Source of the DNA: an uncultured archaeon
GTDB lineage: Archaea; Asgardarchaeota; Lokiarchaeia; Sigyniarchaeales; SOKP01
Reading direction: 5' to 3'
Assembly (NCBI GenBank): GCA_964525635.1
Contig: CAZGJX010000025.1
Coordinates: 1 to 42,333 of the forward strand
Length of the DNA: 42,333 nucleotides
In this document: positions 11,609 to 36,787 of the stretch, one piece after another
Layout: each line of letters begins with the position of its first letter
How positions within the stretch are numbered: the stretch's first letter is position 1
Made by a program: the position numbers and the translations under genes
The notes under the pieces: generated by a model
Databases searched by the model: none
What the model was told of the DNA's origin: nothing
The model's input: the letters and a program-made list of their open reading frames with translations, nothing else

Positions 11609-11644
11609 TAAGTATATTTAGTGAAAAAAAATAGAGCGTAGACA

Positions 11645-11842: not shown

Positions 11843-11984
11843 TAGTATATTTTTAATTATTAAAATGAATATTTCCTTCCCTAATTTATCAGATTAATAA
11901 ATCATTAATTCGATATATCAAAAAATTATTTAACTATAATATTAAGTATTGATATCAATTATTTATTTACTAATTAAATGATTT

Positions 11985-14900: not shown

Positions 14901-15257
14901 ATTTTTAAATAATATTTTAAATTTCTTCATAAAAGCGGGGGATATTTTAGATATAGTCTTTTTTAATATTTGAACATCAATTTTTAACGTAAAAGGTCTT
15001 TGTCTAATGAATACAACATTTAAATCATCAAAAATTATACCAAATAAGAGAATTTGTTTTTCAGTTTCTTCAAAATCATTAAGAATTTGATTTCGTGTAT
15101 CATTGATACTATCTTTGAGAGAATTAGTAAAGGATAATCTTAGTTTATATTTTTGACCAGTTGAATCATCTTCTGAGATGATGTACTCATAATTATTAAC
15201 TTTTTGAAATTCCTTTTCAAGTTTTTTGAATATATCCTCATAAGTTATTTGCTTCAT
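11985..15257 (-). CDS. Eco57I/type IIG-like N6-adenine DNA methyltransferase with target-recognition domain
   Basis: LGAIYE, RKETGSFYTP, ILDLAVGSAHFL (motif I), IYGVDLN, FHW.LEFPEVF and FDIVVGNPPY (motif IV). Start revised to 15257 because of GGGAGGG at 15264-15270 and a TAATG stop/start overlap. Confidence 0.9.
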   Translation of the reverse strand: MKQITYEDIFKKLEKEFQKVNNYEYIISEDDSTGQKYKLRLSFTNSLKDSINDTRNQILNDFEETEKQILLFGIIFDDLNVVFIRQRPFTLKIDVQILKKTISKISPAFMKKFKILFKNFGDFDSWHDLFDRSDIIEEFYQLYNNARKALIKNIRGISSDIEKKEFGEDLLMQLLIIWYLQEKGFLDNNTNYCIDLFKKYKDLGYESFYSCLKDLFEKMMGEATSGLYHESDIFGKVVVTGPAPFINGDFENILIPDNIFYRKDLVEDLKIIEPKKIPHVPILNLFESRDWTEGNIDEFVLGAIYEKIMSIELRKETGSFYTPEEVTSYICERVILEYLKENLFSLKNEDIRALIANASEKDILNIFNFLKKLKILDLAVGSAHFLESAMEVLLKLYENVIERAKKLGYAGGLFIIASNDKGLTEINLMEDFEKEQLRLYLKFFIILSRNIYGVDLNPRALKVARARLFMSLAKHFDANNETFIRFPNVHFNLRQGNSLIGTLRILSEEEDVQSSLFDFLDTDKTEEILTSIRLVSEFKSHLSDTASILKLKGDITKEILSLNESLKKKRINNLEFKRLLITKQKLIRILIASLNSYNLIPLNALINKITDLFKAKIDTIFAEKSMLSIEKIKKVNTFHWILEFPEVFLEQQGFDIVVGNPPYGQNSINNNDRDILQKTWNPVSMNKKSKGGSYNTSAIFIERSYYLLKEKGILGFIVNNSIARVEEFNLIRQFLLDKTILFEIIDEAKIFKESGVTLEMISIFYKKEEKDQYQIKIKSKRFKDFKPNEISNLIFKKYNRFLLYCDDLFFLIYDKSKINVLHGKRGKDAPRKVKSEKFSIPYFFSGKTVKKYRPDINFINYTTPELLNIDSWRKEYDSNLLITTKVNDKYRVYIKPRNTLVGNNVIKLSLEDEFQIDNYALMAILNSNLMDYIVKKYIINYSELTVAFYDSITLFTPLKSVNKNQEKIFSYLAKYMIVLKTEEESVMSIFFTRLIDALVFELYLPNLLLKNEVQNNLFENIEPYINTIEFNSWLNSFWNVVNNGESQNNSINKKISIIENSYEKLSKFEENIKSIENVSERTLVEFEPMD

Positions 15258-18200: not shown

Positions 18201-18970
18201 ATAGCATTAAGAACACCAACTAATTGAAATTGAGCTAAAATATCTTCCTTTTCAATTGGTTCAATACGTCCTTTTAGCCAAATCCAAGATAAATATTTAA
18301 ATAGAGTTTTGGGAGGTACATATATACCAAAAGGATTTTTCTTTCTTGGGCTTAAAGCATTGGAATATTTGATGATGTCAATAAGATCATCTTTAAAATC
18401 ATCAGAATGATGCTCCCAGAGGTCATGGAACCACTTATATAAATAAATTACTTGATCTCGATCAGTAAATCGTGTATTCAATTCCTTACTTGTTCCAGTT
18501 CCAGAACGTGTAAAGTTTGATGATCCTATGATTGCGGCTCCTGGCGTAAATTCTTCTGAATCTTCTAATTGAAGGGGATCATTGACAAAAAGATAAAGTT
18601 TTGAATGTAATCTGCCCTCTGTAAAGATCTTAAAGTCAGCGAAGCCCTCTTTTATTAATTGATATAATTCAGTTAAATTTTCCATATTTTCATCACTTAG
18701 AGGTTTACTCAGATCCTCAAGTAATTTAGTTTTTATTCTTAATCTATACCCTGTAGAAATTTCTTTATAAGTTGGAAAATCTAATTCTCTTCCAATTAAT
18801 ATTTTAAAAAAGCCTTTCTTCATATCATGGGGTAATTTATCTTTGATAAGATTCCAACCACTTAAAAAGAAATATCCTACTGCGAAATCTGCTTCTTTAG
18901 ACTTAGCTATTAACTTTTCGATGGAAGTAATCACTTTCCTATCTGGACTATTATCTAAGATATATGCCAT
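15257..18970 (-). CDS. PLD-nuclease domain + SNF2-family helicase
   Basis: PLD: AVGYF, LHSKLY, IIGSSNFT. SF2: ADSVGLGKS, LIDEAH, LTATPINN, FTQYRDT, STDILSEGVNLQ, YDLPWNP...QRVGRVNR. Confidence 0.92.
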   Translation of the reverse strand: MAYILDNSPDRKVITSIEKLIAKSKEADFAVGYFFLSGWNLIKDKLPHDMKKGFFKILIGRELDFPTYKEISTGYRLRIKTKLLEDLSKPLSDENMENLTELYQLIKEGFADFKIFTEGRLHSKLYLFVNDPLQLEDSEEFTPGAAIIGSSNFTRSGTGTSKELNTRFTDRDQVIYLYKWFHDLWEHHSDDFKDDLIDIIKYSNALSPRKKNPFGIYVPPKTLFKYLSWIWLKGRIEPIEKEDILAQFQLVGVLNAIEIISEFNGCIVADSVGLGKSFIGAALIEEYITGNLLEWDPNNYRINKPRKALLILPPALIKQWRYLLFKSGDFFSKTNNVKLESEKKIIRYQIIGDNYAGEVHFLSLGKFGMMSPDSIYNSDLHKEYDLILIDEAHKFRNRATNRWNNARALRFKEKNNQNSFRNKFIFLTATPINNNIWDVYNLIKIFSDNNFTNFKRRNIQLTKLFTEYRDIKIKMKEDDSLEKDLAVKAQEIKDDVFRKLIILRTRKYIMDSFGENGKINIRGVEYTFKDPIPDKITYNRTEKKFLKYYKFVESLDELFEDLEFTFIKLYSSGYVAFSEEKAVDESSEDSKIMIPIGGILKFLLVKRLESSIFAFEQTLTKLQIKNKLFLKKLIVFKNEVENLISSEFLDKLKNFSSDCIKIAKKEDAIKDFEEDDVDIEEGWIDPRLRLIINLLTYNDLESAQKIKGSCKKESDFYEYCDKTDDLDLLISNLKVGLNALKEELIRDKKLMTEIKTNIDDIKVLDQSGKPLIVGEYSGYTGKVKIYIYDDPKLQVLKDLIYDDINEKKFIIFTQYRDTAYYIYKNLHDWAKKQKETLTYLFSKEGLKIEILTGDLNQHQKENIIERFAPVANNSKKYFRSNIEILISTDILSEGVNLQDADGVINYDLPWNPMKIVQRVGRVNRIGNERDVFVKNFSPGVELDAIIGIIEKLSSKIKDITYLVGKEFYILGEEEEIKHETFEKKIKDLASAKLSELEKLSQTGDAKYLTDIVQQEEIDKFRLINFIQTELKLKKHDFDEILQYIDDKKTLYSLTNSNTLFRAYELYRGTIKTSQYILTLEGENVKEVTCNVFKDLWDIEEYDGDFNIKIVYNKIKILDHYFEREIMDKYKGIIVQKGFPKKLLAFLRQQKQHKTLDEKGIDRSKIVALVDYLPLVEMSTRDIRDFKKYLIEKGAIDKNENIKPQGLSILIDEAYNFLNPGSDTNRRLNYKILGWEGP

Positions 18971-19148: not shown

Positions 19149-21275
19149 TTATAATAGATCAAATGCCGATTGAAATCCATTTTGGTTTTTCTTTTCTTTT
19201 TTAGATTTAAGTTGTACTTTTGACTTTTTATATACTTCAGGATTTAATTCCCAGATAAATCGGGACACCCGACAGGTTTGGAGCCCTCGATATGTTTGAA
19301 CAATAGCAGGAGAGATTAAATATAATTGATCTTTTGCTCGGGTGACAGCGACATAGAACACTCTTCTCTCTTCTTCAATCCCTTCAGGATCTCCGACCAC
19401 ACGACTAGAGGGGAACATGTCCTCAGCTAACATAGGAATAAAGACGACTCGCCATTCTAATCCTTTTGCACGATGTATAGTAGATATAACTAATGGTTTT
19501 TCTTGTTCTACATTGCTCCCTAATTGTGAAGTACGAGATCCTATATCTGATTGATTCAGACTTAATATTTCTAAAAGTTTCTGAATAGTGGAATAATTCT
19601 GAGCGTATACTGATAATTGTTTTAAATCATCTAGACGATCTTGCCAATTCTCATATGATGTCTTAATATGATCTTTTAAAACCTTAATTAAGTCTAAGAT
19701 TATATCAGAAGGATTATCTTTTGCTGTAATTCCTTTTATTTGCTGTATATATGTTTTTAAGTGTCTCTTACCTATCGATGGAATCCGAGAGCCTTTCATA
19801 ATATTAGAAAAGAAATTTGGAGTGAGCAAAAAATCAATTGGATTTTCTTTAGTAGATATAGTAGAAAAAATTTTTGTAGCTGATGTAGTTCCGATTCCTG
19901 GAATGATTTTAAAAATTCGCATCCATGCTAGCTCATCATAAGGATTTTCAATAATCCGTAAATGAGCAATTAAGTCCTTAATATGTGCCTTTTCAAAAAA
20001 GGCTACCCCCGCCCTTACCTCATAAGGAATATTTTTTTTTCCTAATTCTAATTCTATTCGCATAGTATGGAAGGTGGCTCGTACTAAAATAGCCATTTGT
20101 TCTAGCTCAAATCCATCCTCTCGAAGTCTTAAGACTTGTTTGGCAATAAATCTTGCTTGTGCTTTATGATCTTTTATATTAACTTGAAAAGGTGTAAGGC
20201 CTTCTGGACGAGTTGGCTGCATATCTTTTTTAAATTGGTTTTTATTATGTTGTATGGAATCATTGGCAAGAGTAAGGATTTCTGGAATTGACCTATAATT
20301 ATAAGTTATATTATAGACTCTACAATCATCATATTTTTTCTTGAAATTCATGATGTTTTGAAAGTTTGCCCCTCTAAACGCATATATACTTTGAGCATCA
20401 TCTCCAACTGCGATTATATTACGCTGCGGATTTTGTGATACAACTTTATATACAATATCATCTTGAAGCCAATTTGTATCTTGATATTCATCTACCAAAA
20501 TATATCGAATCCTTTTAGCAATAAGCTTAGCAACTATTCTTTCATCTAATAAAGCACTCCAATATATAAGTAAATCATCAAAATCTATTAATCCATCCTG
20601 AGCTTTTTTCTTTTCATAAATCTTAAAGATTTGTTTCATCTTCGCGATTACTTTCTCATTATTAAAATCTTCATATTTCCAAAGAATTACATCATGAATG
20701 GATTTGTTACAATTAATAGAATAAGAAAGAATGGATTTACAAATTTTTGCCTTTGGAAATCGTTCTTCAATTTCTTTTAAATTAGATTTTTCTCTTGCTA
20801 ATCTCATTAGTGAGACTGCATCAGTTTCATCCATTATAGTGTAATTAGATCTTAATCCCGCTGTTTTTGCATATTTTCGCAAGAATCTATTTGCAATAGA
20901 ATGAAAGGTCCCTGCCCAAATTCCTTTAGGTTTCTTTCCTAATAACGACTCCACACGCTCAATCATTTCTTTAGAAGCTTTATTGGTAAAGGTCACTAAC
21001 ATAATTTCACTTGGTCTTACGCCTAGTGATAAAAGTTTAGCAACTGCATAGGTTATAGTTCTGGTCTTTCCTGATCCTGCTCCTGCAATTATCAACATTG
21101 GACCCTGTATATTATTAATGATCTCAAATTGTTCTGGATTTAAATTTTCTTCAAAATTAACCTCATTATAGTCATTATCTAATTTTGAAGGTTCTAAATC
21201 CAAATCTTCAAAAAGATCATCCTCATAAAACTCAAATGTATATTCTTCCTCTACTTTTTCTTTTTTAGACGACAT
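19149..21275 (-). CDS. uvrD: UvrD/PcrA/Rep-family SF1A DNA helicase
   Basis: LNPEQ, AGAGSGKT, VTFTNKA, VDEYQD, VGDDAQSIYAFRGA, NYRS, STIHRAKGLEW, EERRVFYVAVTRAK. Confidence 0.95.
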   Translation of the reverse strand: MSSKKEKVEEEYTFEFYEDDLFEDLDLEPSKLDNDYNEVNFEENLNPEQFEIINNIQGPMLIIAGAGSGKTRTITYAVAKLLSLGVRPSEIMLVTFTNKASKEMIERVESLLGKKPKGIWAGTFHSIANRFLRKYAKTAGLRSNYTIMDETDAVSLMRLAREKSNLKEIEERFPKAKICKSILSYSINCNKSIHDVILWKYEDFNNEKVIAKMKQIFKIYEKKKAQDGLIDFDDLLIYWSALLDERIVAKLIAKRIRYILVDEYQDTNWLQDDIVYKVVSQNPQRNIIAVGDDAQSIYAFRGANFQNIMNFKKKYDDCRVYNITYNYRSIPEILTLANDSIQHNKNQFKKDMQPTRPEGLTPFQVNIKDHKAQARFIAKQVLRLREDGFELEQMAILVRATFHTMRIELELGKKNIPYEVRAGVAFFEKAHIKDLIAHLRIIENPYDELAWMRIFKIIPGIGTTSATKIFSTISTKENPIDFLLTPNFFSNIMKGSRIPSIGKRHLKTYIQQIKGITAKDNPSDIILDLIKVLKDHIKTSYENWQDRLDDLKQLSVYAQNYSTIQKLLEILSLNQSDIGSRTSQLGSNVEQEKPLVISTIHRAKGLEWRVVFIPMLAEDMFPSSRVVGDPEGIEEERRVFYVAVTRAKDQLYLISPAIVQTYRGLQTCRVSRFIWELNPEVYKKSKVQLKSKKEKKNQNGFQSAFDLL

Positions 21276-21326
21276 TTACTATAATTTAAAATAATTTTAT
21301 TTTCATATGTGTAATTTTATTGGTTA

Positions 21327-21334
21327 TATATAAA
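21327..21334 (-). promoter_or_regulatory. Candidate TATA box for uvrD
   Basis: TTTATATA on the minus strand, about 50 nt upstream of the ATG, in the 158-bp OLD-uvrD gap. The AT-rich background limits specificity. Confidence 0.3.
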
Positions 21335-21433
21335 TATAAGATATGTTCTAAAATGATCGAGTTAATTTGATACACCTTTTTTTAATATAGGTTAAAATAA
21401 TTTTATATTATTAAATGTAAGATTTGACAATAG

Positions 21434-23347
21434 TTATGAATCGCAAATTATCTTTTCTTCTTTAATTTGCCTTCTTCTCGATGAAATAGTAAAATCTAAA
21501 ATAAATTGAATAATTTTTTTTATATTGCTTGGAATTGTATTTATCTTTAATTTATTTAGATATTTAAACGCTTTATATGGTTTATAACGCTTATTTGGAG
21601 ATATTCCAATAAGAACCTCAAAATTCGGATCAATAGTTATTAATCCGATTTTATTAGGAAAATTTCTAATATAATTTTTAATTCTTTCATTTTCTTTAAA
21701 ATTCTTCTTTTTTCGCTTAATTTTCTCAATTCTATCTTCTGAAAGTCCACCCTCTCTCAGTTCCTCAATATCTTTTGATTCCTCTTCCGTTAAAGGGTCT
21801 ACATCATGAATTAAAACAATAGGTCTATCAAAATGTGATAATATTTTTAAAAAATATATTAAATTATATTTTCCACCACATTCAATAACAGAAATATTAG
21901 ATGTATTTAAATTGTTATCCAATAAATCAGAGATACCATTAAGTATAATTTTTTCAACATCTCCTTCAATTAAGATAATTTTTTTTGCAAAAAACATTTC
22001 ATTTCTTTCTGGATTAAATCTCATTAACATATTAAATTCCTCTTTAGATTCTAGTTCAAAGATTTCACTCTGAATCCTTTTAATTTTTGTTCCAATATCA
22101 AGATTATTCTTACTTACTAAAATTAAGCTTAGATAATTCTCAATACTTATAAAGTGAGTGGAATGGGTTGTGTAAAGTACCTGATCATATGTAGAGATTG
22201 TATAAAGTATATTTAATAACTCCTTTTGAGCTTGGGGATGTAGATATAATTCTGGCTCTTCAATTAAAAATATAAATGGGCGATAAGTAGAATTATTTTG
22301 ATTTTCTTGTTTTGCTCTTAAATACCTAGAGTAAGTAAGAAATAAAGCAAAAATTAGAGATCTTTTAATTCCATCACCTTTTTCTTCTATTGAACTATTA
22401 ATTCCATCATCGATAAAAATCTCTGAATTAGAAAAAAAATCGCTAAATTTTGGAGTTAAAAATTTAATCTCAAGATTTTTAGTCAATATATTCTTATTTA
22501 AGTTTTCCTTTAATTTTAATTCTATATCTTTTATAATTTGAAATCTATTATCATTAGAATCTTCTATTTTATTTATCTTTTGCTTAATTTCATCTAAACT
22601 ATTCTGAAAGTCTTCTATGGATGTTTCTTTTTGCTTAATCTCTTCTAAAATAATTTTTTCTAATATTTTCTTATATATAGATTTACTTTTAATAGTAGTC
22701 TTCATTTCTTCAGATAAATGTTTAGTAGCTTCAATATACAAAAGTTCAGGTAATATTGAGACAACTTCTTTCCATTGAAATGGAGATTTACACCATATTT
22801 TTCTCATATCTATATTAGTCTCATTTTCTAAAAAATCGTGAATTCCTACTTTAAAACTAGTTTTAGTTAATTTTCCTTTTTCGTTATAAAAATAATTTTG
22901 ATGATTATTTTCCTCAATCCAGTTCTCTATTTCTGATTTATTTTCGTTCCAAGTGGATAGATATTCCTCTGAAAAATAGCAAAGATCTGGATATTCTTGT
23001 AAAATCTCAAAAGAAGTAGTAGTACGCTCAGTCTCTTCATTTATTGAAAAAACTTTTTTAAGTTTGATTTTATCATTGATAATATATCTTTCAAAAAAAT
23101 CTCTTTCTGAGTGATTTAATTCTTCAAATGTTATGGTGATAATAATATTTTTATTTAATTTTTCTTTAAAAAAATCTGATTTACTTAATCCAACAATACT
23201 TTTACTAAAAAACAATCTTAAAGCAAGCAATAAATTGGTTTTTCCTGAATTATTTTCTCCAATTAATTGTAAGAAATTATTTTTAATTTCAATTTTCTCT
23301 TTCTTAATGGAGCGAAAATTTTCAACTTTATATTTTTTTATTATCAT
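21434..23347 (-). CDS. OLD-family ATP-dependent nuclease (ABC ATPase + TOPRIM; GajA-like)
   Basis: NFRSI, GENNSGKTN, GDGIKR, IEEPELYLHP, YTTHS; TOPRIM FFA..IILIEGDVE and IHDVD. Confidence 0.92.
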   Translation of the reverse strand: MIIKKYKVENFRSIKKEKIEIKNNFLQLIGENNSGKTNLLLALRLFFSKSIVGLSKSDFFKEKLNKNIIITITFEELNHSERDFFERYIINDKIKLKKVFSINEETERTTTSFEILQEYPDLCYFSEEYLSTWNENKSEIENWIEENNHQNYFYNEKGKLTKTSFKVGIHDFLENETNIDMRKIWCKSPFQWKEVVSILPELLYIEATKHLSEEMKTTIKSKSIYKKILEKIILEEIKQKETSIEDFQNSLDEIKQKINKIEDSNDNRFQIIKDIELKLKENLNKNILTKNLEIKFLTPKFSDFFSNSEIFIDDGINSSIEEKGDGIKRSLIFALFLTYSRYLRAKQENQNNSTYRPFIFLIEEPELYLHPQAQKELLNILYTISTYDQVLYTTHSTHFISIENYLSLILVSKNNLDIGTKIKRIQSEIFELESKEEFNMLMRFNPERNEMFFAKKIILIEGDVEKIILNGISDLLDNNLNTSNISVIECGGKYNLIYFLKILSHFDRPIVLIHDVDPLTEEESKDIEELREGGLSEDRIEKIKRKKKNFKENERIKNYIRNFPNKIGLITIDPNFEVLIGISPNKRYKPYKAFKYLNKLKINTIPSNIKKIIQFILDFTISSRRRQIKEEKIICDS

Positions 23348-23378: not shown

Positions 23379-25457
23379 TTAACTTTCTTTGGTGATTTTT
23401 GTGATATGATTTGTCTTTCTGAAATTAAATATATCTGTTACAAAAGAATCTAAAGCTCTATCATGAGAAATTACAATTATTTGCTCAGTATTTAAAGAAT
23501 CAAATAAATATTGCATTTTATTGATTTGCTGTTCACTAAATCCGTCCGTCGGCTCATCCAGTATTAAAATATCTTTGGTTTTAACCTCTTGATATCGTTC
23601 ATTAATGATTCGATTAAGAGCTAAACGATAAGCTAAAGCAAGAGCACTTTTTTCTCCTCCAGACATATCTCCAAATGGTGATTCATAACCATCTACATAA
23701 ATAATTGGCTCAAAATCATCTGGTCTGATCTCAACCTCAATGTTATTCTCCTCTACCAATAGATAGAACCATTTTTTAAAATAATCATTAAATTGAACTG
23801 CACTTGAGGATACTATTTCTCGTTCAATATCTCCAAGCAATACTGGAAAATTTTCGTTAATCCATCCTTTTAAACTCGATAACTTATCCATTTTCTCCTG
23901 CAACAATTTTTTATATTCTAAATGTTTTTTCAATACTTCTAATTCATTTTTGATATATTCAAGAGATTTTTTTTCTACACTTACCTTTGCATTAAGATCA
24001 CTTTCTTCCTTCTGTAGACCTTCTAATGCCTTTCTTAATTCTTTAATTTTTTCTTTTTTATCTATGGTTAATTTACTAAAACTTTCTAAATCTTTAATTT
24101 TATATTTCTCTAAGACCTTTTTAATCTCTTTTTGATAATTTTCTATGTTTTGCTCAAAATTCGCAATTTCATCAAGTAACCCTTTTTCCATTTTTTTTGC
24201 TAGTTCAATCAATTTCTCATAAGATTCTCGGCTTGCTCTCGTTTCAGAATATTGTTTTGAGAGTTTCAAATTATTTTCTAATAAATCAATCTCTTTGTTA
24301 AATTCTTCAATTTGATTTGATAAAGAATCTATTGATTCCTGAGTTTCTTTTAATTCTTTATTGAAACGCTCTTGCTCATGGATTGTCTGTCCACATAGAG
24401 AGCATCTTCCTTCTCTTAATAATTTATTAATATCTGAGATCGATTTTTCAAGAATAGCTCTTTGTTTTTCTTTTTCAATTCTTTTATTTTTAATATCGTC
24501 TATTTTTTTAGAGAGCTCATCTTGAGATTCTGTAAAATTTAATTTTATCTCAGGTATTTTATTTAATTCTTCTTTGAATTTTATTATGCTATTTTGATTA
24601 GTTGAGACTTTATTTTCATTTTTTTCTTTATTATCTTTTTCTTGCTGAAGGAGGCTTTCTTTTTTGTCAATTTCTCTTATTTTTTGTTCTAATTCCTCGG
24701 ATTCTCCTTCTAAATTATTAATACTTTTTTTCTGCTCAGTTACTTCTTTGGACTTTTTTTCCAATTGTGTGTTAAATTTAGAAAGTTTTTTTTCTTGAAC
24801 TTTATATTCCATTTCCTTATTTTGTATTTCAGATTCAATATTGCTATAGTCTTTTAATTTACTATCCACTTCTTTGAATTTCTCTCTTAGGTATGATCCT
24901 ATAGTTTCAATATTAGCTTTAGCGATTTCATATTTCTCTATTCCAAATATGTATTTCAAGATTTCGAATCGATCCTCTGGTTTTGCTTCTAAGATTTCTT
25001 TTATATTCTCTTGGGGAGTATATACAGTATATCGAAATATAGGGATTTTTTGAGCGCGTTCGTATCTAGCTACGGAATAATTTAAAATTTCTAGAATTTT
25101 TCTTTTTAAATCTGTGGTTGCATAAGTAGTCATCTCTCCGTTTATAGTGAGAATTCCACTTTTCTGTGAAATACTCCCTTTTTTGGACTTTGATAACATT
25201 CTTTTTATTATATATTCGTTTCCATCAATACTAAATTCTAATTCAACGGTAGCTTTGTTTTCTCCCCTTCTCAGGATAGAATCTGCTTTAAGATCAGCAG
25301 CAGTTAGAGCTCCAAATAGTGCAAATTCAATGGCTTTCAGGACAGAAGATTTTCCGCTTCCGATATCCCCATAAAAAAGAATAATAGAGGGAGGTAAATC
25401 AATTTCTTCTTTTTTAATACTTCGAATATTTTCAATTTTAATTCTTTTTAATTGCAT
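23379..25457 (-). CDS. rad50: Rad50/SbcC ATPase (short coiled coil)
   Basis: GDIGSGKSS, Q-loop YTPQ, coiled coil with central zinc hook CSLC, MSGGE, ILDEPT, ISHD. Confidence 0.93.
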   Translation of the reverse strand: MQLKRIKIENIRSIKKEEIDLPPSIILFYGDIGSGKSSVLKAIEFALFGALTAADLKADSILRRGENKATVELEFSIDGNEYIIKRMLSKSKKGSISQKSGILTINGEMTTYATTDLKRKILEILNYSVARYERAQKIPIFRYTVYTPQENIKEILEAKPEDRFEILKYIFGIEKYEIAKANIETIGSYLREKFKEVDSKLKDYSNIESEIQNKEMEYKVQEKKLSKFNTQLEKKSKEVTEQKKSINNLEGESEELEQKIREIDKKESLLQQEKDNKEKNENKVSTNQNSIIKFKEELNKIPEIKLNFTESQDELSKKIDDIKNKRIEKEKQRAILEKSISDINKLLREGRCSLCGQTIHEQERFNKELKETQESIDSLSNQIEEFNKEIDLLENNLKLSKQYSETRASRESYEKLIELAKKMEKGLLDEIANFEQNIENYQKEIKKVLEKYKIKDLESFSKLTIDKKEKIKELRKALEGLQKEESDLNAKVSVEKKSLEYIKNELEVLKKHLEYKKLLQEKMDKLSSLKGWINENFPVLLGDIEREIVSSSAVQFNDYFKKWFYLLVEENNIEVEIRPDDFEPIIYVDGYESPFGDMSGGEKSALALAYRLALNRIINERYQEVKTKDILILDEPTDGFSEQQINKMQYLFDSLNTEQIIVISHDRALDSFVTDIFNFRKTNHITKITKES

Positions 25458-25459
25458 GA

Positions 25460-26737
25460 TTAATCCTCCAAATCTTCTAATTCAAATACATTATTAAACG
25501 ATTCTATTAAATGAGCTTTATAATCTTTAACATTACTACCTTCTTCTCTTTCCTTTCCTATAATATCTATTAACCTATGAATATTATCTTCAAGCTGTTT
25601 TTTTGAATATCCAATTAATTCCGTTATTTGAGAGTGTTCATGAATCAATGTTTTTTCAATCTCTTCGTTAGTTTTTCCTAAAGCAACTCTAATAGACGAA
25701 TATCCTTTTGTAAAGACTCCACATTTATTAATTAGTATCTCGTAAGCATTTTTTTCTTTAAATTTATTTTCTATTTCAGCGGAATTAATTTCATACGCTT
25801 TTCCTGAGGAGAGAGTTCCAGCTATTCTTAAGGTAGCAATTTTATCTTCTAGTTCATTCTTATCTATTAGATTTGTTAACTCATTTAATATCTCCAGTAC
25901 AGATTTGTTATTACAATTTATCTTTAAATTAATAACATCTTTAACTCTAACTGGAATAAATCTAACTTCTAGATGATTATTTATATCTCCTTGAACCATG
26001 CAAAATCCCCCATGGTTAAACTTTTCTAATTCTCGAAAGTCTGTAGGAAAGAGGCATCCTGGATAAACAATATTATTTTTATCATTAATAATAATACGTC
26101 CATTTTCTCGTAAAGATTCTGGTACTGTTTTATGGAGATGTCCACCAGCATAGTAATTAAAATGCTTTGGTAGATACGATTTAGGAGCAGATTCCATTTC
26201 AGCATACTCTGAGGGTTTTAATTCTTGGAGCATTGTGTGAAATACAAATATTTTAGCTCCTTCTTCTTGTTCTAATGGTTCATATGCTAATCTTTGGAAA
26301 TCTTCAACTTCAAGAGCTCTTTTTCTTGCTCTCATTCCAGTTAATTTGATCTTTGATTTTGGATCTTCGGTAAATTCTAAATAAATTTTGTTATCTTCTC
26401 CTATAGATCCTTTATATAAATCTGTATAGAATCCCGCACTAATTAATGGGCGAATCATAGTCTTCTCAGACGGAGAAAAATCGTGAGATCCCATAATAGC
26501 ATATACGGGAATATTATTATCGCTCAATTCTCTTAATTTCTTAATTGCTAAATCAACAACATCTACTTTTGGATTTGATGTATCGTATAAATCTCCACTA
26601 ATGATCACAAAATCCACTTTTTCTTCAATGCAAATGTCTATCGCTTTTTCAAAGGCTTCATACCCACATATATTAAGATTCTCCCTTCTCCAAGCACCCA
26701 AATGTACATCCGACATATGAGCAAATTTTACATTCAT
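25460..26737 (-). CDS. mre11: Mre11/SbcD nuclease
   Basis: Metallophosphoesterase motifs HMSDVHLG, SGDLYD, GSHD, FH, GGHLH and YPG; lies 2 bp from rad50. Confidence 0.93.
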   Translation of the reverse strand: MNVKFAHMSDVHLGAWRRENLNICGYEAFEKAIDICIEEKVDFVIISGDLYDTSNPKVDVVDLAIKKLRELSDNNIPVYAIMGSHDFSPSEKTMIRPLISAGFYTDLYKGSIGEDNKIYLEFTEDPKSKIKLTGMRARKRALEVEDFQRLAYEPLEQEEGAKIFVFHTMLQELKPSEYAEMESAPKSYLPKHFNYYAGGHLHKTVPESLRENGRIIINDKNNIVYPGCLFPTDFRELEKFNHGGFCMVQGDINNHLEVRFIPVRVKDVINLKINCNNKSVLEILNELTNLIDKNELEDKIATLRIAGTLSSGKAYEINSAEIENKFKEKNAYEILINKCGVFTKGYSSIRVALGKTNEEIEKTLIHEHSQITELIGYSKKQLEDNIHRLIDIIGKEREEGSNVKDYKAHLIESFNNVFELEDLED

Positions 26738-26766: not shown

Positions 26767-28323
26767 TTATTCAAGACCAGGTGATCTTTTTCTTGTAGAT
26801 GGTTGAGATTTGTCCTTTTCTGCAAGATATTTGACAAGATCACTAAATAAGGGAATTTTAATAGGAATTGCAAACTTGGTAAAATTGGAAGTTATAATTG
26901 CTTCTCCTTTATCTAAGCTTGCAATAGTTTGTGAATCATCTGAAAGATCTTGAGCAGCACTGTCAATTAAAGCTCTTCTTTCAGGACCCATTTCATTCCC
27001 TAGAATTATCTTAGTATTCATGTTAGCCAAAATATCTCTGGGAATTTCACTTGGTAATTGAGTAATTGCTATTAATCCAATTTGGAACTTTCTTCCTTCT
27101 CTTGCTATTGTTCCAAAGATATTATTGCGAGCCTCTAACACTCGTTTTCCAATAACTCTTGGAGCTTCTTCTAAGACAATAGAAATGACAGGTTTATTTT
27201 TTAACTCGTCTTTAAATTTATAATTTTTATATTTTGAAAAAATTCTTTCGGTAATAAGAGTCGCTACAAATATTTCTTCATTTCCAGTAAACAATGACGT
27301 GTCAATTATTACGGTTTTTCCTTCTTCTAAAGAATTTATTATATTATTTATTGTACTCTCATGTCCATTAAATTGGTAGATACCATTCGCATTAACCTTA
27401 TCATCTTCATGCTCTAAATCGAGTAAGATAGATAATTTTCTCTTTAAAACTCCTACAGTGTTTTCTGTAACTCCTGGTGTGGATGGACCAATAAATATAT
27501 TTTTTATCCAATTTTTATATTCATTTACTTTATCTTGCCGATGGTATAGAATTAGCGCGTCCTTTTGGGCATTTGAAAGAGATAGTGTATCTATAAAATT
27601 ATACGGAGAGAGTAACTTCATATTGAATTTTAAATCCAATTTGCCATGGACTTCTCTTATAGTGTAGTATTCAAGATATTCCTCTTTTTTAGGATGTTTT
27701 TTAAGACTTTCATAATATTCATTATGAGGATCAAAGACTAATTTACCACATTTTTCATTTTCTATAATATTATAGAGAATCACTTTGACTAAATTTGATT
27801 TTCCTCTTCCTGTAGTAGCAGGAATCAAAACATGATGTTTAAATACTTCTAAAGCTTCTAAGTTAATTTCAGTCTTTAATTCTTTAGATCCTGAGCGGAC
27901 AGTTCCCAACATAATCGGATTATCAATTTGATCTTCTTTTAGAAATGATAAATGATCATCTTCTAATTCATATACATCACTGAAAAATTCCGGTAGTTTT
28001 TTTGGTAAAAATAGTTGATCATTTTTCAAATGAATGAGCGGTCTTGCAAGAGCAAGTACGTAATTTCTTAACTCTGGTTCGTAAATAGCAAGATTACTCG
28101 ATTCTCGTTCTAATTTATACCCTGCCATTAATTCTAATATATTATCGGGCATTTGGCTTCCAAACATTAAATCATTAATTTGGAAAATAATATAGTCTTT
28201 AGGATTCTTTCCAGCAACAATTAATTGCCCAATTTCAAATGATTCCTCTGATTTCTGACGTAGGTATAATTTTACAAATGAACCTGTTATAAAACTGCCT
28301 ATTTTTTTTCCTAATTTTGACAT
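26767..28323 (-). CDS. herA: HerA DNA translocase/helicase
   Basis: N-terminal barrel-like region, [50 protein letters not shown]. Confidence 0.93.
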
Positions 28324-28344: not shown

Positions 28345-29478
28345 TTAATTTTTTCTTATAGAATTTAAAATATTATGAGCCTCGATAGAGTATATCCGAG
28401 GCAAGAGATTATTAACATAAATAGTCTGATCAATTTCAGAGATAATCTCAATCTTCCATGGTTCTATTTCTCTTTTTGAGACTCTTGATAATTGATCTAC
28501 TTTGATTAATCCATAAGGATATCCTGGAAATGTGATATCATTTGAATTTAACGCTAAATTTGAGATGATAACCTCTTTTTCTTCAGTATCTATCTCTTTT
28601 GATTGTTTTAAATAAATATCAAACCTGAAAGGCATTAAAGCATGTTCATGTAATTTTACAAAATACACATCTGCCATACCATCTGCTCTTGTGATTTGAT
28701 AAATAGGATGATAATACCACTTTTTATTTTTATATTTATTTGAAGCTATTGAATGAATTAATGATATTAATGAATCACCATTTTTGGTAAGCAGGCGACA
28801 GGACTTCGAAAGCCCAGTAACATATACATGTTTTTTTTCAGCTTGTTTCTCTAATTTTCGAACTAATTTAATTTCATCTTTAAATCCTGTTTGAAGAGAG
28901 CCATCCCTTACAAAAATATCACCTTGATCTAAGGTTGCCTCTATAAATTGAGTAGCATAAGTCCATTCAGAAAAACGCATTCCAACACCTCCAAAATTCT
29001 CAATTCTTGGCATAAATCTAATTCCATATATAGAACGCGCCTCATCAAGAGTTATCGTTATTTTTTCTTTAGGTAAGTAATTCCAAAACTCATCTTCTCT
29101 TGGGAATAATTGAATTGAATATATAAGTCTATCATCCTCAGTTGGTTCCAATACAGTAACAGAATAAAATTCAATAACTTGAGGGACTGTAGAAAATTCG
29201 CTTATTTTATTATTTTTACATAAGACTCCCGCTATTCGCGTGAGATTTATATTAAAATCCGCACTTGATAAGATTGAGATTGAACCTCCATCAACGAATC
29301 CTAAATTTCTAAATTTTGCCTTATCTGGAATTTGAAATATTCTCTCTTTAGAAATATCATAAATTATCTCTCCATCTCCTTCTGAATAAGGTTTATCTGT
29401 TTTGGCAAATCCTTTTTTTGCGTTAATAACATAATCAATGCACTTTCTCAATGCTTTAATTGAGGTATTTTCTCTCAA
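28345..29478 (-). CDS. nurA: NurA 5'-3' nuclease
   Basis: GFVDGG, FVRDGSL, GLSK and GYPYGL..VD motifs; TTG start with AAGGGA RBS; 21 bp upstream of herA. Confidence 0.88.
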   Translation of the reverse strand: MRENTSIKALRKCIDYVINAKKGFAKTDKPYSEGDGEIIYDISKERIFQIPDKAKFRNLGFVDGGSISILSSADFNINLTRIAGVLCKNNKISEFSTVPQVIEFYSVTVLEPTEDDRLIYSIQLFPREDEFWNYLPKEKITITLDEARSIYGIRFMPRIENFGGVGMRFSEWTYATQFIEATLDQGDIFVRDGSLQTGFKDEIKLVRKLEKQAEKKHVYVTGLSKSCRLLTKNGDSLISLIHSIASNKYKNKKWYYHPIYQITRADGMADVYFVKLHEHALMPFRFDIYLKQSKEIDTEEKEVIISNLALNSNDITFPGYPYGLIKVDQLSRVSKREIEPWKIEIISEIDQTIYVNNLLPRIYSIEAHNILNSIRKN

Positions 29479-29566: not shown

Positions 29567-31831
29567 TTATCTGGGAATGTAAGGAACATTAATATCCTCT
29601 TTATTTAAAATTGCTAAATTCTGAACAATATGCAAAGGCAAAATCGTTTTTGGTTGATTAAAAAGTGAATTCCAATCTAAATATCTTAGATCATTAAATA
29701 ATTGTGAAATTTCAATAATATTCATATTATTGATCCCTTGATGAGTTAAAACTAATCGCTGAGATGTTGCTGTCCCTCTATATGGTCTTGAAGTAATTAA
29801 TAGTGCTTCTTTGTCATTTCTAATTAAACCCAAAGGTTTTATTTTATAATCTCTCTGCTCTGAACCATAAATTCTATGAACACCACGTTTTATTACTGCA
29901 ATAACTTTTATATCAGAGTTTTCATTCATAATCCCTTCTTTTATCAATCTTTCCCTTGCATTCAAAGCTCCTTTTTTATACTCTTCTACTTGATTGCTAT
30001 AGATTGGACCATCCTTAAATAACATTAAATAATCAATGAGTTTTTTATTTGTATTCAAATAGGTTGACATAGCTACATCAACAAACCAATCATTTAGTAC
30101 AGTAGATTCTACACGTTCCCCTCTATGTGATTCAATAGAATTTTTATAAAGAACTTGCCCTAAGCTATCACATATAGCGGCATAAGCAGCGGCTTCCGCT
30201 CTTGTTTCAGGATTTCTTGAGACATCAAAACCCATAAAATAGACGGTCTTGTCTTGACTGAGATTTCCAGCAGGTTTATTTAAGTGCCATATTGATTGAT
30301 TTACCCTCAAATATCTTCCATAATTCTTTAGTGCTATTATATATCCTTCTGCTTTCACTTCAGAAGAATTCAATATTTTTTTTAAAGTACTTTCTCTAAT
30401 CATTTGACTTTTTATCGCATTTTTTCCTAATGCTCTCTTAGAAGCCCTATAGATTCTAGTTGTATTTTTATTTGGAATAATAACGTTTACAATTCCATTG
30501 CTTAAATTATTGCCACATTCTAAGCAGGTTCTCATATATCTATCAGGAGTAAGCTCTTTTATAGCAATTATATTTTTTATCTCAAAATTTCCTAGATTTA
30601 GTCTTTTAGCATGATGATTTAGATTATTATTATATTTCCTAACTTCAGATTGCAAGTAAGAAGGTATAATATAAATTATAGGAATAGTAGCAACTTTTGA
30701 AATGGGACCAAAATTTTCCAATGAAGATTTAATAGGAAGAGATTGCCAAGAGGAGTCAACTTTACACACATTATCACCCCCAAATCTTAACTCAGGTGGA
30801 TTAAATTGAATAATTGAATTGTATGGAATATCTTTATTATTTTTCCAACTATGTAAATCCCTGATAAATCTTATTTTTATTTGTCCTAAATCAAGGCCAC
30901 TACTAAGTAACATATCATATATTTTCAGAGTCTCTTCAATTCGATTTTTAGGATTTAAGATCTTCTTTTCATTGAAGACTTTATTTGGGAGAAGATGTTC
31001 GGATGGATCTATTACTATTTCTAATACATTATAAGGATAACATAGGGGTTCTGGACTGAAATCTGTTTTTACCAATATAACTGGCATATCATTTGGATAT
31101 AATTTAATTTTATTTCTAGCACACCAATTTTTATTTTGCTTTTCTTGAGTCCAATAGTTATAAATAGAGAATACGTCTGAACCTTTCTTAAATTTATACG
31201 TATCTATCGTCTGATATACAATTTCCTTTATTCTTCCATTAAAAGTACCTTCCTTTGAAACTTTAGGACATTTAACTCTCTTTCCTATTAAGAAGTGTTC
31301 GGGATCATCAATATTGTTCTTTTTTGCCCATTTAAAAAAATACTTTAAGGGAAATTTCCATCTCGTTGAAGGATCTAACCATACTCCAATTTTCCCATTC
31401 GAATAGACCTCAATTTCAGAAAAAAATGCCTCATAATAATCAAGAATGTCTGACTTATAAGGATCTCTCCTAACATACTTTTGACTTTCAGGACCCATAT
31501 ATCCCATTCGGAATGCTTGTCTCTTCAAAGCTTGAGAAATTATTTTAGCTAATATTTTTTGATGGTCAAGAGAATTTAATTCAATTTTTGTGTTTGATTT
31601 TTTAAAATCATAACCTCCATAATGATAACTATCTTCAAGATTATCTTTCCCCATATAAATTACCTTATTACCCATCGTTATAGGAAAGACTCCTCTATTA
31701 AACAGAAACCATTCAAATCCTTTTGTAATTTTATAGAAATTTTCAGGTAGAATGGATTGATCTATCAAATAACAGGGGAGAGCCACTTTTTGTAAAGGGT
31801 TATCCAATGAGACAAATAAATTCGAATACAA
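29567..31831 (-). CDS. ago: Long prokaryotic Argonaute (N-L1-PAZ-L2-MID-PIWI)
   Basis: PAZ: SIYNYW...DMPVILVK...YP. MID: Y...K...KSQMI. PIWI: MGFDVS, LFKDG, VIKRG, GTA, L.YLDW, P.T.LPLH. TTG start with AGGTGA RBS. Confidence 0.92.
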   Translation of the reverse strand: MYSNLFVSLDNPLQKVALPCYLIDQSILPENFYKITKGFEWFLFNRGVFPITMGNKVIYMGKDNLEDSYHYGGYDFKKSNTKIELNSLDHQKILAKIISQALKRQAFRMGYMGPESQKYVRRDPYKSDILDYYEAFFSEIEVYSNGKIGVWLDPSTRWKFPLKYFFKWAKKNNIDDPEHFLIGKRVKCPKVSKEGTFNGRIKEIVYQTIDTYKFKKGSDVFSIYNYWTQEKQNKNWCARNKIKLYPNDMPVILVKTDFSPEPLCYPYNVLEIVIDPSEHLLPNKVFNEKKILNPKNRIEETLKIYDMLLSSGLDLGQIKIRFIRDLHSWKNNKDIPYNSIIQFNPPELRFGGDNVCKVDSSWQSLPIKSSLENFGPISKVATIPIIYIIPSYLQSEVRKYNNNLNHHAKRLNLGNFEIKNIIAIKELTPDRYMRTCLECGNNLSNGIVNVIIPNKNTTRIYRASKRALGKNAIKSQMIRESTLKKILNSSEVKAEGYIIALKNYGRYLRVNQSIWHLNKPAGNLSQDKTVYFMGFDVSRNPETRAEAAAYAAICDSLGQVLYKNSIESHRGERVESTVLNDWFVDVAMSTYLNTNKKLIDYLMLFKDGPIYSNQVEEYKKGALNARERLIKEGIMNENSDIKVIAVIKRGVHRIYGSEQRDYKIKPLGLIRNDKEALLITSRPYRGTATSQRLVLTHQGINNMNIIEISQLFNDLRYLDWNSLFNQPKTILPLHIVQNLAILNKEDINVPYIPR

Positions 31832-31983: not shown

Positions 31984-33108
31984 ATGTCACAAAAAAAGGA
32001 AGATTCATATTCAAAAATTAAATCATTGGTAGAAGAATCTATAGAAAAAGGAATAATTGAAAAAGATAATCTTTTAGATCCTACTTTATTTTGGTATCAT
32101 ACGTTTCATTATATATCTGATCCTTTAAATACAATCAATAATGAGACAAAATTCTCAAAAGATAACTTAGAATTTTTTATAAATCGCGAAGCAGAGATGA
32201 AAATTATTTCCAAATATATTGGAAATCTGCACAATTTATCTTCAATGACACATATCGCCTTAATAGGAGCATTGGGATGTGGTAAACACACAACTTTTAA
32301 AGCTATTTGTAAGATTGTAAATGATTCGTTTCCTGATATAAAATATGAGTTTTATAACTACTATGGATTTGATTTTAAAAATAATATTGATTTAGAAGAT
32401 GATATTTTAAAAAAAGTAGATGATTCTGATTTAGATATGAGAATTATTTCTTGTTCGGCATTGACTAAAGACTTTCTTAAAAAGAGATTTAAAAAATACA
32501 ATAAAAATACAAAGATATTGTTTTCGATTTGGAATATAGGTGAATATTCTATTCGATCTGAAATATTAGTCAATAAAGAAATCTTTTTTAGAAATTATTC
32601 CAAAAAAGAAATTATTAAAATATTGAGGAAAAGGATTGAAATGTATTTGATTAAAGATATAACTTTAGAGAAATATAAAAACAATATAATAGAGCAGGTC
32701 CTACCTCTATTATCAGAAATATCAGAGGGAAATTTACGGATTTCCTTTATTTTATTTAGGATTATCCATCAAGAAGCAAGAATTAAAGGCATTCAATTAT
32801 TTAATATGGACTTCCCCCAGACAATATTAGAGGAATTTAAAAATATGAAAAGTGTTAAATTAACTGATAAAGAAAATACTATTATTAAGTATATGCTATT
32901 TAATGGAATTAAGTATATAACTACCTCTAAGATGGTACAAGAACTAAATTATGAGAGAACTGTAGCTTGGAAATATTTAGAAAATCTTACAAATAAGAAT
33001 GTATTATATAAGCAATATGGAAATCCTTCAAAATATGAGATAACAGAATTATTTTTAAGTATATATGAAGAAAAAATAAAGAAAAAATTAATTTTTAAAG
33101 AACATTAA
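31984..33108 (+). CDS. AAA+-like (Cdc6/Orc1 or archaeal ATPase-like) protein with C-terminal winged HTH, probably a degenerate ATPase
   Basis: FINREAE, P-loop GALGCGKHTT, SEGNLR lid motif, C-terminal LTDKE..I....RTVAWKYLENL; no clear Walker B. Confidence 0.7.
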   Translation: MSQKKEDSYSKIKSLVEESIEKGIIEKDNLLDPTLFWYHTFHYISDPLNTINNETKFSKDNLEFFINREAEMKIISKYIGNLHNLSSMTHIALIGALGCGKHTTFKAICKIVNDSFPDIKYEFYNYYGFDFKNNIDLEDDILKKVDDSDLDMRIISCSALTKDFLKKRFKKYNKNTKILFSIWNIGEYSIRSEILVNKEIFFRNYSKKEIIKILRKRIEMYLIKDITLEKYKNNIIEQVLPLLSEISEGNLRISFILFRIIHQEARIKGIQLFNMDFPQTILEEFKNMKSVKLTDKENTIIKYMLFNGIKYITTSKMVQELNYERTVAWKYLENLTNKNVLYKQYGNPSKYEITELFLSIYEEKIKKKLIFKEH

Positions 33109-33121
33109 GAGAGATAAAGTC

Positions 33122-33940
33122 ATGCCTACCTTAAGGATATATTTAAATTTTTTATTTAAAAATGATTTAGAAGAAATTGAGACAAATATTCTTAAGAATG
33201 AAGATAATTTTGCAAAATTTGATGATAATGATATGATTTTAAAATCAGGTTTTTTTGAAGATCAAAAAATCTTTACAAAAATAGAGGACACTGATTATTA
33301 TATAGCAAATTATTTATTACAGCAATCAAAGTCCATTCCTTCTAAGAACTCTGAACTTATTTACTTTAAATTACAAGAATCAAAAGTGGATTCTAAGGAA
33401 GAGAGGATTTTCTTCCCTATACTAATCAAGATCATTTTTAATATAAATAAAAAAGTTTTATGCCTATATAGTAGGAAAGTTGTGGAAAATGATGCGGCCA
33501 ATAGTTTTATAAAACAATTAGAAGAAAAATATGGATTTTCTTTTAAATTTTTTCTAACTCATTTTGCTTTTAAAAAAAATAAGCTAGATAAATTTCTAGA
33601 AGCTCTGGGTAAACTTAGTAATTTCACTTCTATTTGCATTTTTGATAAAGATAATAATATAATCGCGCAAAATTCAGATACCTTATCTGAGACTAGGAAA
33701 ATTCATGAGTTTTTAGATGAAGTCAATATTGGGAATTGGAAATATGTAGAATTAATCCATAATGATCTTGAATTTAGAATAAGAATAAGTAATAAAAAGA
33801 CTCAAAATTATATTACCTTAAAAAATAGATATGATAATGATTATAAACTAGTCAAAATAACTGATTATCTAATAGAAAAAATTAAAGAAACAATTGATTT
33901 CGAAAAACAGCAGCAAGCTAAGTTGGATTGGTTTAAATAA
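33122..33940 (+). CDS. Hypothetical protein with a C-terminal PIP-box-like motif
   Basis: 272-aa ORF 13 bp after the AAA-wHTH gene; ends QQQAKLDWFK. Confidence 0.65.
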   Translation: MPTLRIYLNFLFKNDLEEIETNILKNEDNFAKFDDNDMILKSGFFEDQKIFTKIEDTDYYIANYLLQQSKSIPSKNSELIYFKLQESKVDSKEERIFFPILIKIIFNINKKVLCLYSRKVVENDAANSFIKQLEEKYGFSFKFFLTHFAFKKNKLDKFLEALGKLSNFTSICIFDKDNNIIAQNSDTLSETRKIHEFLDEVNIGNWKYVELIHNDLEFRIRISNKKTQNYITLKNRYDNDYKLVKITDYLIEKIKETIDFEKQQQAKLDWFK

Positions 33941-35176: not shown

Positions 35177-36787
35177 CTAAGAAGAAGCTTTTTTGACAAT
35201 TTCGTCTAATAATTTGGGAATTTCATTATAATTATCATACCAAATTACATTAACTCCAAGTTGATTGTATAATATTTCTTTTATTGCATGATACCTCTCT
35301 AAAATATCCTTAGTCTCCTTTAATTTCTTATATCTTTCTTTCCATTTAGTTAAAAATTTATCCACTGATATTCTCTGAATAAAAGCAAAATGCTGTAGCC
35401 CATCTCTCCATAACTCTAAATTTTTCTCATGTTTAATATCTGTAAATTCATCTATCTTATTCTCCCATTTATGAAAGGAAGAATACATCAAAGATCTTAG
35501 ATTGGGATCTTTTAATGAAAGTCCAATTAATAAACAATTATAATTATCAAAAGCTTCTGTCTGACATTTATTTCTCCACAAATTTCCATTTTCACGTAAA
35601 GATAAATAGTCTGACTCCGTTAAAATGATTTTACTATTTTTATTTTTTAATAATCCATGAACATGATAAATATAGAACATATTATTGTCTCTCTTTTGAT
35701 TATAGTAAGCATATTTTTTGGGTGTTAATTCATTTAGATCATAATTCTTTTCATTAGAAATAATTTTTATATCTTTTGCTGGTAATAATATCGATTGTTT
35801 TAAGGCCTTATCCATTAAATCATCAAAATTATATGTGATAATTTTATTTGTCAATTCTGATCCACATAAACTCTGGATACTTTGGATTAATTTAGAAGTC
35901 TGCTTTCTTTTTTTGCTTTGCAAAATATCAAAAAGAGTGGTTCTAAGGTCGTTTACAATAGCAATTTTAATAAATTCCGCTTCTATTAAAGGACTCTCTT
36001 CTTCACAATCATGAAATCGTCCTGCAAAGTATGATTTTTCATTTTCAGTTATTCCTTTACTTTCGGGAATATCCTCTATGACTCTTCTCATTAATTTTTT
36101 TAAAAGTTCATTCCAATCTGGACAATTTAGGCTTTTAGAGACTCCTGAACCAAGAAATAGGATTAAATTATTTTTATTTAATTTACCTATAATCTCTATA
36201 TATTTTTCTCTGTGAAGTTTTCGCTTATTTCTTTCATAGGAAGGATCTAATCTTATAACATAATTTAAAGCTATTTTGTTAAAGAGTTCAGAATATCCCG
36301 AAATAAATCGAGAGTATTCCCAAAAAATAGGTTTTAAATCACTAAAATCCCATAATTTACATGACTCTAAATTAAGAATCTCCATATAATCTCTTCTTTT
36401 TCTCTCTTTTTCTCTCTTTTCTAATGGTCTTATAAGATATAAAATAAATATATTTCCATAATTGGTTTCCTTTACTTTCTGAAAAAAAGCTCGTTCATCA
36501 TATTCCGATCTCTCATCTTCCCACAAAAGATATATAACATTTCTCTTATTATTATTAAAAAAATCTTTTTTTCGCATATAACCTACATGACTAATTGAAC
36601 CAATAAAATTACTTTCTAATTTATTATATTTATAAGATATTTTTTCTGATATACAATAATAGAATAATAAGATTCCTATTATTCTATGAATTATGTTAGA
36701 GCTACCAATATCGCTAGTATACTGAATACGGCTCATCCTTATTATTTCTTTTTTTATATCCTCCAGATCAAAATCATAATTTTTCAT
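35177..36787 (-). CDS. SIR2-like (SIR2_2) protein with an uncharacterised N-terminal domain
   Basis: LFLGSGVS...PDW, ITYNFD, YHVHG, ILTESDY, LLIGLSLKDPN, LGVNVIW. Confidence 0.88.
   Translation of the reverse strand: MKNYDFDLEDIKKEIIRMSRIQYTSDIGSSNIIHRIIGILLFYYCISEKISYKYNKLESNFIGSISHVGYMRKKDFFNNNKRNVIYLLWEDERSEYDERAFFQKVKETNYGNIFILYLIRPLEKREKERKRRDYMEILNLESCKLWDFSDLKPIFWEYSRFISGYSELFNKIALNYVIRLDPSYERNKRKLHREKYIEIIGKLNKNNLILFLGSGVSKSLNCPDWNELLKKLMRRVIEDIPESKGITENEKSYFAGRFHDCEEESPLIEAEFIKIAIVNDLRTTLFDILQSKKRKQTSKLIQSIQSLCGSELTNKIITYNFDDLMDKALKQSILLPAKDIKIISNEKNYDLNELTPKKYAYYNQKRDNNMFYIYHVHGLLKNKNSKIILTESDYLSLRENGNLWRNKCQTEAFDNYNCLLIGLSLKDPNLRSLMYSSFHKWENKIDEFTDIKHEKNLELWRDGLQHFAFIQRISVDKFLTKWKERYKKLKETKDILERYHAIKEILYNQLGVNVIWYDNYNEIPKLLDEIVKKASS

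Follow-up and report, generated by a model that had tools for sequence, protein, structure and literature searches.

A clade of archaeal Argonautes with glutamine at the fourth catalytic position, often encoded beside accessory DNA end-resection genes

The window analysed here, a stretch of 42,333 nucleotides of Asgard archaeal DNA, harbours on its reverse strand a gene for a long prokaryotic Argonaute (29567..31831) which was recognised by a Pfam Piwi match (7e-10), the PADLOC pAgo models and AlphaFold modelling, and which specifies a 754-amino-acid protein of N-L1-PAZ-L2-MID-PIWI architecture belonging to a clade designated here by its catalytic residues, DEDQ. The initial annotation had assigned the Argonaute to 29567-30480, a range that corresponds to residues ~451-754 and represents the MID-PIWI half of the 754-residue open reading frame. 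Downstream of the Argonaute gene, on the same strand and separated in turn by gaps of 88, 21, 29 and 2 bases, are four contiguous genes with intact motifs, encoding a NurA nuclease (28345..29478), an accessory paralogue whose D63 and D192 are invariant among its orthologues, a HerA translocase of an accessory lineage (26767..28323), an Mre11 nuclease (25460..26737) and a Rad50 ATPase (23379..25457) with a short coiled coil and a visible CxxC hook, signature and Walker B motif. HerA-NurA together with Mre11-Rad50 constitutes the archaeal end-resection machine. The rad50 gene is followed, also on the reverse strand, by genes for an OLD-family ATPase/TOPRIM nuclease and then a UvrD/PcrA helicase (19149..23347), reported by PADLOC as a Gabija-like pair; OLD was considered as a conserved partner of the Argonaute and rejected, being adjacent in the window and not conserved at Argonaute loci, while the UvrD of the window is 67% identical to the UvrD encoded directly before nurA in a locus without an Argonaute (L105). 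On the opposite strand lie genes for a divergent AAA/STAND-type NTPase with a winged HTH, a likely regulator (31984..33108), and for a 272-amino-acid protein that accompanies it (33122..33940). An AAA/STAND-wHTH gene adjoins the Argonaute in seven other loci, and elsewhere its position upstream of the Argonaute is taken by a Csa3-like CARF-wHTH gene. Scans for promoters, terminators and repeats returned nothing above chance. Taken as a whole, the contig has the character of a defence island.

Modelling of the Argonaute from a 59-sequence alignment gave a mean pLDDT of 91.6, while an earlier model, based on a shallower alignment, fell below a pLDDT of 50 at residues 732-754 and was too poor to establish the register of the catalytic residues. 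The later model matched CbAgo, CpAgo and PIWI proteins over residues 1-754 with Z scores of about 35, the CbAgo match having a Z of 34.9 and an rmsd of 4.3 over 687 residues, and because this confident model aligns end to end with these structures the window Argonaute is a full-length long prokaryotic Argonaute. A search of the PDB with the single Argonaute sequence gave no match and profiles were required, the best profile matches being the long-A pAgos CbAgo, CpAgo, KmAgo and TtAgo (E 1e-34 to 1e-20). These profile matches make it a candidate long-A Argonaute; the trees contain TtAgo and the likely HrAgo1 as their only references, both on long branches, and give a clade support of 80-83. The homologue search identified proteins of Promethearchaeota, Heimdallarchaeota, Bathyarchaeota and Micrarchaeota as the nearest named relatives, and a second search with a wide alignment returned the query alone. 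Together with an HrAgo1-sized Argonaute in a genome of the same order, these matches point to a Promethearchaeota (Loki) archaeon as the most likely host. As the gene is missing from all 60 of the sampled relatives' genomes, its distribution is patchy, as is that of defence genes.

The register of the active site was derived from a profile-to-TtAgo alignment with hhalign (probability 98.7) and from a 97-sequence MAFFT alignment, which agree in placing D536 (30224..30226), E572 (30116..30118) and D607 (30011..30013), all read from the reverse strand, at TtAgo D478, E512 and D546, so that the first and third catalytic aspartates and the glutamate finger proposed in the initial annotation, the latter as a candidate, are all present. 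At the fourth position is Q737, specified by a CAG codon (29621..29623, reverse strand), which aligns with TtAgo D660 and, in the PDB profile alignment that runs ungapped through the last helix, with CbAgo D727 (numbering confirmed from PMC6582352) and the matching aspartate of KmAgo; in the AlphaFold model it lies within a helix spanning residues 731-744. Its assignment as the fourth catalytic residue, suggested by the initial annotation from one protein, is thus correct and holds well beyond that protein. The D-E-D of canonical slicing Argonautes is present in the window protein, and the D, H, K or N expected at the fourth position is replaced by Q737. The neighbouring candidates for the fourth residue, H734 and N738, which the initial annotation had named as the placements that would overturn its assignment, were rejected as they match TtAgo H657 and R661, respectively. 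A sequencing error or private mutation as the source of Q737 was likewise rejected, given that 47 proteins carry the residue and both glutamine codons are used. The initial annotation had also suggested that H734 (29630..29632, reverse strand) may compensate for the glutamine. This residue is the counterpart of TtAgo H657, described as a guide contact (PMC9360449), and lies outside the tetrad; histidine occupies its column in 12/23 canonical-tetrad proteins and in 27/47 DEDQ proteins, being absent from the other 20, and a special compensating role was accordingly dismissed. The lysine noted before the third aspartate, where arginine is usual, is genuine and clade-wide: K606 has its equivalent in 45/47 DEDQ proteins, as against arginine in 20/23 proteins with a canonical tetrad.

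The four residues of the MID 5′-phosphate pocket, Y461, K465, Q476 and R506 (30314..30451, reverse strand), correspond in the MAFFT alignment to TtAgo R418, K422, Q433 and K457, giving a pocket YKQR as compared to the (Y/H/R)KQK motif. The pocket had been described as altered, and the last lysine is indeed replaced; the replacement is by arginine, a conservative change for which that description is an overstatement. Lysine occupies this fourth pocket position in 38/47 DEDQ proteins and arginine occurs there in 6/23 canonical-tetrad proteins, Asgard proteins included. Among the 47 DEDQ proteins the pocket is YKQK in 23 and YRQK in nine, figures that give no clade-level support to the changed preference for the guide 5′ end that had been raised for this protein, and replacement of Q476 by A, V or E is found only in a small subclade of its six closest relatives. 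The residues map onto the (Y/H/R)KQK motif; a 5′-OH or PliAgo-type pocket was rejected, and a 5′-phosphate pocket is the state to be expected. The C-terminus of an Argonaute normally occupies the MID pocket; the C-terminal residue of the window protein is an arginine (29570-29572, reverse strand), and 25/47 clade members also end in arginine.

Homologue searches yielded 47 distinct archaeal proteins carrying DEDQ, with a minimum pairwise identity of 17% and a median of 28%, so that the glutamine, whose conservation in orthologues the initial annotation had proposed as a check, is not confined to the window protein. Invariance of the glutamine follows from the way in which the set was defined; D536, E572 and D607 were not selection criteria and are nevertheless invariant in 47/47, being among just ten invariant columns of 334, which also include R539 and K648, and their invariance persists in a subset of 19 proteins reduced to below 50% identity. 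The glutamine codon is CAA in 12 loci and CAG in 10, and because the residue is retained while both codons are used, it is under selection. Neighbouring degenerate lineages (GRxN, DGDH, DGDD) no longer have the glutamate finger, which all 47 retain. One such neighbouring group (P0047, P0049, P0053 and P0060-P0065) has G-R-x-N-like sets in place of the catalytic residues and mostly keeps a YKQK pocket. In two quick trees, whose only references, TtAgo and the likely HrAgo1, are both long-branched, the 47 DEDQ proteins form one weakly supported group (80-83) with eight proteins that carry H or D at the fourth position. The only close relative with such a residue is P0029 (DEDH, codon CAC), a fragment from a single contig that is sister to the DEDQ protein P0027 with a support of 100; a more distant seven-member subclade within the group has H or D and often lacks the glutamate finger. 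D or H in close orthologues, named in the initial annotation as evidence that would count against its assignment, is therefore limited to that one fragment. A strictly DEDQ clade was rejected with the tetrad columns removed (p-AU 0.0003), which indicates that Q and H were exchanged at least twice or that Q originated more than once.

An end-resection machine is found in 14/23 full DEDQ loci versus 3-4/31 other Asgard Argonaute loci, counts that are non-independent and include several flanks ending at contig ends; DEDQ loci, moreover, contributed to the profiles used to recognise neighbours, which favours DEDQ neighbours. In nine of the DEDQ loci the machine consists of HerA/NurA and/or Mre11-Rad50 (the window, L001, L002, L008, L019, L021, L030, L031 and L032) and in five it is exchanged for an AddA-like UvrD-PD-(D/E)XK fusion (L005, L006, L007, L033 and L034); three further loci (L003, L009 and L012) encode other nucleases, so that 17/23 are nuclease-linked and six have no recognised nuclease partner. 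Small PD-(D/E)XK genes also occur near the Argonaute in some relatives. Several of these loci have features of their own: a 1388-amino-acid protein without a Pfam or PADLOC match is encoded between the Argonaute and nurA in L001 (12574-16740), and Mre11 and Rad50 are fused into one protein of 1201 amino acids in L002 (14202-17807). At the three clear control loci, L074, L075 and L080, the Argonautes have a canonical DEDD tetrad and come from a single separate Asgard lineage; in L074 (5370-14501) and L075 (1-8715) these head nurA-herA-mre11-rad50 operons, a NERD-UvrD gene intervening in L074. Between the window and L074, whose module is about 50-65% identical, the HerA proteins share 65% identity and the Argonautes 18%, and the HerA proteins of L002 and L008 are 74-76% identical to that of L075 while the Argonautes share 17-18%; NurA, moreover, adjoins DEDH members of the clade that contains the DEDQ proteins. 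As DEDD and DEDH Argonautes carry the same modules, the resection module accompanies Argonautes regardless of the fourth residue and gives no sign that the glutamine killed the site. The possibility that the resection genes of the window are the housekeeping copy was rejected, since a second NurA on contig C71 is the copy common to 24/24 genomes of the family, while orthologues of the window HerA occur in just 10 of 40 relatives (60-67% identity in nine, 51% in one), none of which has the window's Argonaute. The resection genes of the window are accessory.

On balance we favour the view that the window protein slices with DNA guides, probably at a lower rate or with selectivity for metal, and receives these guides from a co-encoded resection machine standing in for RecBCD/AddAB. 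This attenuated slicer is preferred because D-E-D, the glutamate finger included, is invariant, because Q and H appear to have been exchanged, and because the modules are shared with DEDD Argonautes; the initial annotation had offered a slicer variant among its readings, and it is this reading, without the compensating histidine, that we favour. The locus would then be a mobile archaeal DNA-interference cassette in which the accessory Mre11-Rad50 and HerA-NurA resect invading or replicating DNA from its free ends, a task that in relatives would be taken over by the AddA-like UvrD/PD-(D/E)XK helicase-nuclease. Resection would provide short 5′-phosphorylated single-stranded DNA guides together with exposed single-stranded targets, as RecBCD/AddAB does for the bacterial CbAgo; the guides would be loaded into a working MID pocket and the complementary strand cut by a two-metal RNase H site in which the Asp, His or Asn ligand of metal A gives way to the side-chain carbonyl of Q737, probably making slicing slower or Mn-dependent. 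The fourth tetrad residue is known to bind metal A (PMC10772731), and replacement of the equivalent D134 of Escherichia coli RNase H by N or H retains reduced activity, this residue being dispensable with Mn (PMC4032109). The fourth position is the most tolerant one in the parent RNase H fold, and by analogy the glutamine carbonyl could ligate metal A as N or H does in RNase H. AddAB and RecBCD make the guides of bacterial long-A pAgos, the source being unclear where they are missing (PMC12094033). Certain points speak against slicing: the side chain of glutamine is uncharged and exceeds that of Asp or Asn by one carbon, and published tetrads allow only D, H, K or N as the fourth residue. Human AGO3, moreover, retains DEDH and slices weakly, so that an intact D-E-D is no proof of slicing; one survey calls the first three tetrad positions universal, and linkage to a nuclease is more frequent among inactive than among active pAgos (45% vs 53-67%), 17/23 DEDQ loci being so linked. 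The linkage of Argonaute and module could also reflect an insertion hotspot, as the module is present without the Argonaute in 10 relatives.

The main competing explanation is a non-slicing targeter, in which catalysis would halt at Q737 although D-E-D went on binding metal and holding the target clamped; the guide-bound protein would mark DNA for destruction by a co-encoded nuclease or helicase-nuclease in the manner of long-B or DdmDE systems. That Q falls outside the published set of fourth residues, that a nuclease is adjacent in 17/23 loci and that K replaces R before the third aspartate throughout the clade would all suit such a protein, which we nonetheless consider rather unlikely: DEDD and DEDH Argonautes are found with the same modules, none of the 47 proteins has lost the glutamate finger, 6/23 loci are without a recognisable nuclease partner, and partners drawn from unrelated lineages (the HerA proteins are about 20% identical to one another) and unrelated families fit poorly with a single recruitment interface. 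The initial annotation had proposed a sensor of this kind handing cleavage over to NurA, Mre11 or OLD; the occurrence of the same modules with DEDD and DEDH Argonautes and the lack of conservation of OLD remove the main support for that proposal. Still less probable, in our judgement, is a nuclease that cuts only during guide maturation, by trimming resection products or removing the passenger strand, or only when triggered, for instance by Mn, by a short guide or by a partner. For such a nuclease human AGO3 is a precedent of an intact yet conditional site; the independence of RNase H from its fourth ligand in Mn and the fixation of Q without drift agree with it, although sequence cannot tell it apart from the slicer that we favour.

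The slot in front of nurA does not always contain an Argonaute, being filled by a ~625-amino-acid NERD nuclease-UvrD helicase fusion in L106, L108 and L109, two of these also sharing the divergent AAA-wHTH regulator, and by UvrD in L105. Such exchange is what would be seen if the Argonaute were a repair accessory or one cargo gene among others before a mobile nurA-herA-mre11-rad50 set, functionally unlinked to it. We regard this coincidence as very improbable, for the link recurs across Argonaute subclades that are only 22-29% identical and involves several unrelated HerA lineages as well as non-homologous AddA-like replacements. Returning to the attenuated slicer, a wider proposal can be offered only tentatively, as it seems to us somewhat more doubtful than that slicer itself: DEDQ may constitute a fifth, hitherto undescribed active-site chemistry of Argonautes that defines an archaeal clade, and the locus a defence system whose dedicated HerA-NurA-Mre11-Rad50 guide generator would do in archaea what RecBCD/AddAB does for guide supply, in the lineage that is nearest to the eukaryotes.

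The window protein resembles the DNA-guided long-A Argonautes CbAgo, CpAgo, KmAgo and TtAgo in its full-length fold and in having D-E-D and the MID residues in register, and differs from them in its glutamine where they have D at the fourth position and in a structural identity of just 14-15%; those proteins are stand-alone and depend on the host RecBCD/AddAB, whereas the DEDQ clade usually co-encodes end-processing genes. In APACE1, a cyanobacterial long-A pAgo accompanied by the Cas4-like ACE1 in hosts that lack RecBCD/AddAB (PMC12094033), an Argonaute is likewise located beside a repair-related nuclease; however, CtAgo is DEDD and its partner a small single-stranded DNA endonuclease, while here the host is archaeal, the Argonaute is partnered by the four genes of HerA-NurA-Mre11-Rad50 or by an AddA-like fusion, and the genes adjacent in the window are nurA, herA, mre11 and rad50 and not a Cas4-like ACE nuclease. 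Asgard hosts are shared with HrAgo1 (PMC11217426) and the asAgos (10.1101/2023.09.13.557551). HrAgo1, which is PIWI-like and RNA-guided and has a DEDH tetrad, lies beside an RNase III gene, in contrast to the DEDQ window Argonaute, whose locus has no RNase III gene and which does not fall in the HrAgo1 group, the likely HrAgo1 locus (L060, an 817-amino-acid DEDH protein) lying outside the DEDQ clade in the quick trees. One relative, L033, does have RNase III: at 11370-15121 of this locus a DEDQ Argonaute precedes genes for an AddA-like helicase-nuclease and an RNase III-dsRBD protein, an arrangement that recalls the HrAgo1 neighbourhood. The asAgo survey reports many DED triads without a canonical fourth residue (10.1101/2023.09.13.557551); these DED-only proteins, counted there and not described, may include the DEDQ clade, so that its sequences are possibly in published sets already. 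A term search of the HrAgo1 and asAgo papers (PMC11217426, 10.1101/2023.09.13.557551) found no NurA link and no description of DEDQ.

The operon shares its four contiguous genes and visible motifs with the archaeal HerA-NurA-Mre11-Rad50 operon for double-strand-break resection, and differs from it in being a patchy accessory paralogue (10/40 relatives) with an Argonaute at its head. A further parallel comes from inactive long-B pAgo systems and DdmDE, in which a non-canonical Argonaute site likewise occurs beside nuclease or helicase genes. Long-B and DdmDE Argonautes have lost acidic residues of the site, unlike the DEDQ clade, in which D, E and D are invariant in 47/47 and the partners vary. 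The literature searched, which included few subscription papers, contained no DEDQ Argonaute, no Argonaute operon with NurA and HerA, and nothing relevant on pAgos with Mre11-Rad50 or on mutants with glutamine as the fourth residue; the DEDQ clade is a widespread and uncharacterised family of archaeal Argonautes. Current annotation rules accept a DEDX site as active only where X is D, H, K or N, so that by default the entire archaeal clade is classed as dead. If DEDQ cuts, this activity rule and the estimate of active Asgard Argonautes will change and new programmable nucleases become available; if it does not, a strictly conserved yet stalled active site needs explanation. How guides are produced in organisms without RecBCD/AddAB has been stated as an open question (PMC12094033), and two unrelated Asgard Argonaute lineages that share HerA-NurA-Mre11-Rad50 suggest a testable archaeal answer to it.

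Further observations concern the genome and the remainder of the window. On contig C46 of the same genome (L104, 4019-8154) are tandem, highly diverged Argonaute-like genes for proteins of 745 and 632 amino acids without catalytic residues, and similar pairs are found in L091, L092, L094 and L100. In the window itself, a PLD-SNF2 helicase and a type IIG restriction-modification-like methyltransferase are encoded at 11985-18970 on the reverse strand, and in L004 and L011 a similar pair precedes the DEDQ Argonaute. SIR2-like proteins are specified at 35177-36787 (reverse strand) and 5111-7000 (forward strand), one of them weakly similar to ThsA/Dsr and the other fused to TPR repeats, and a TIR-LRR-small GTPase (Ras/Roc-like) fusion, a eukaryote-like combination of domains, is encoded at 8196-9704 on the reverse strand.
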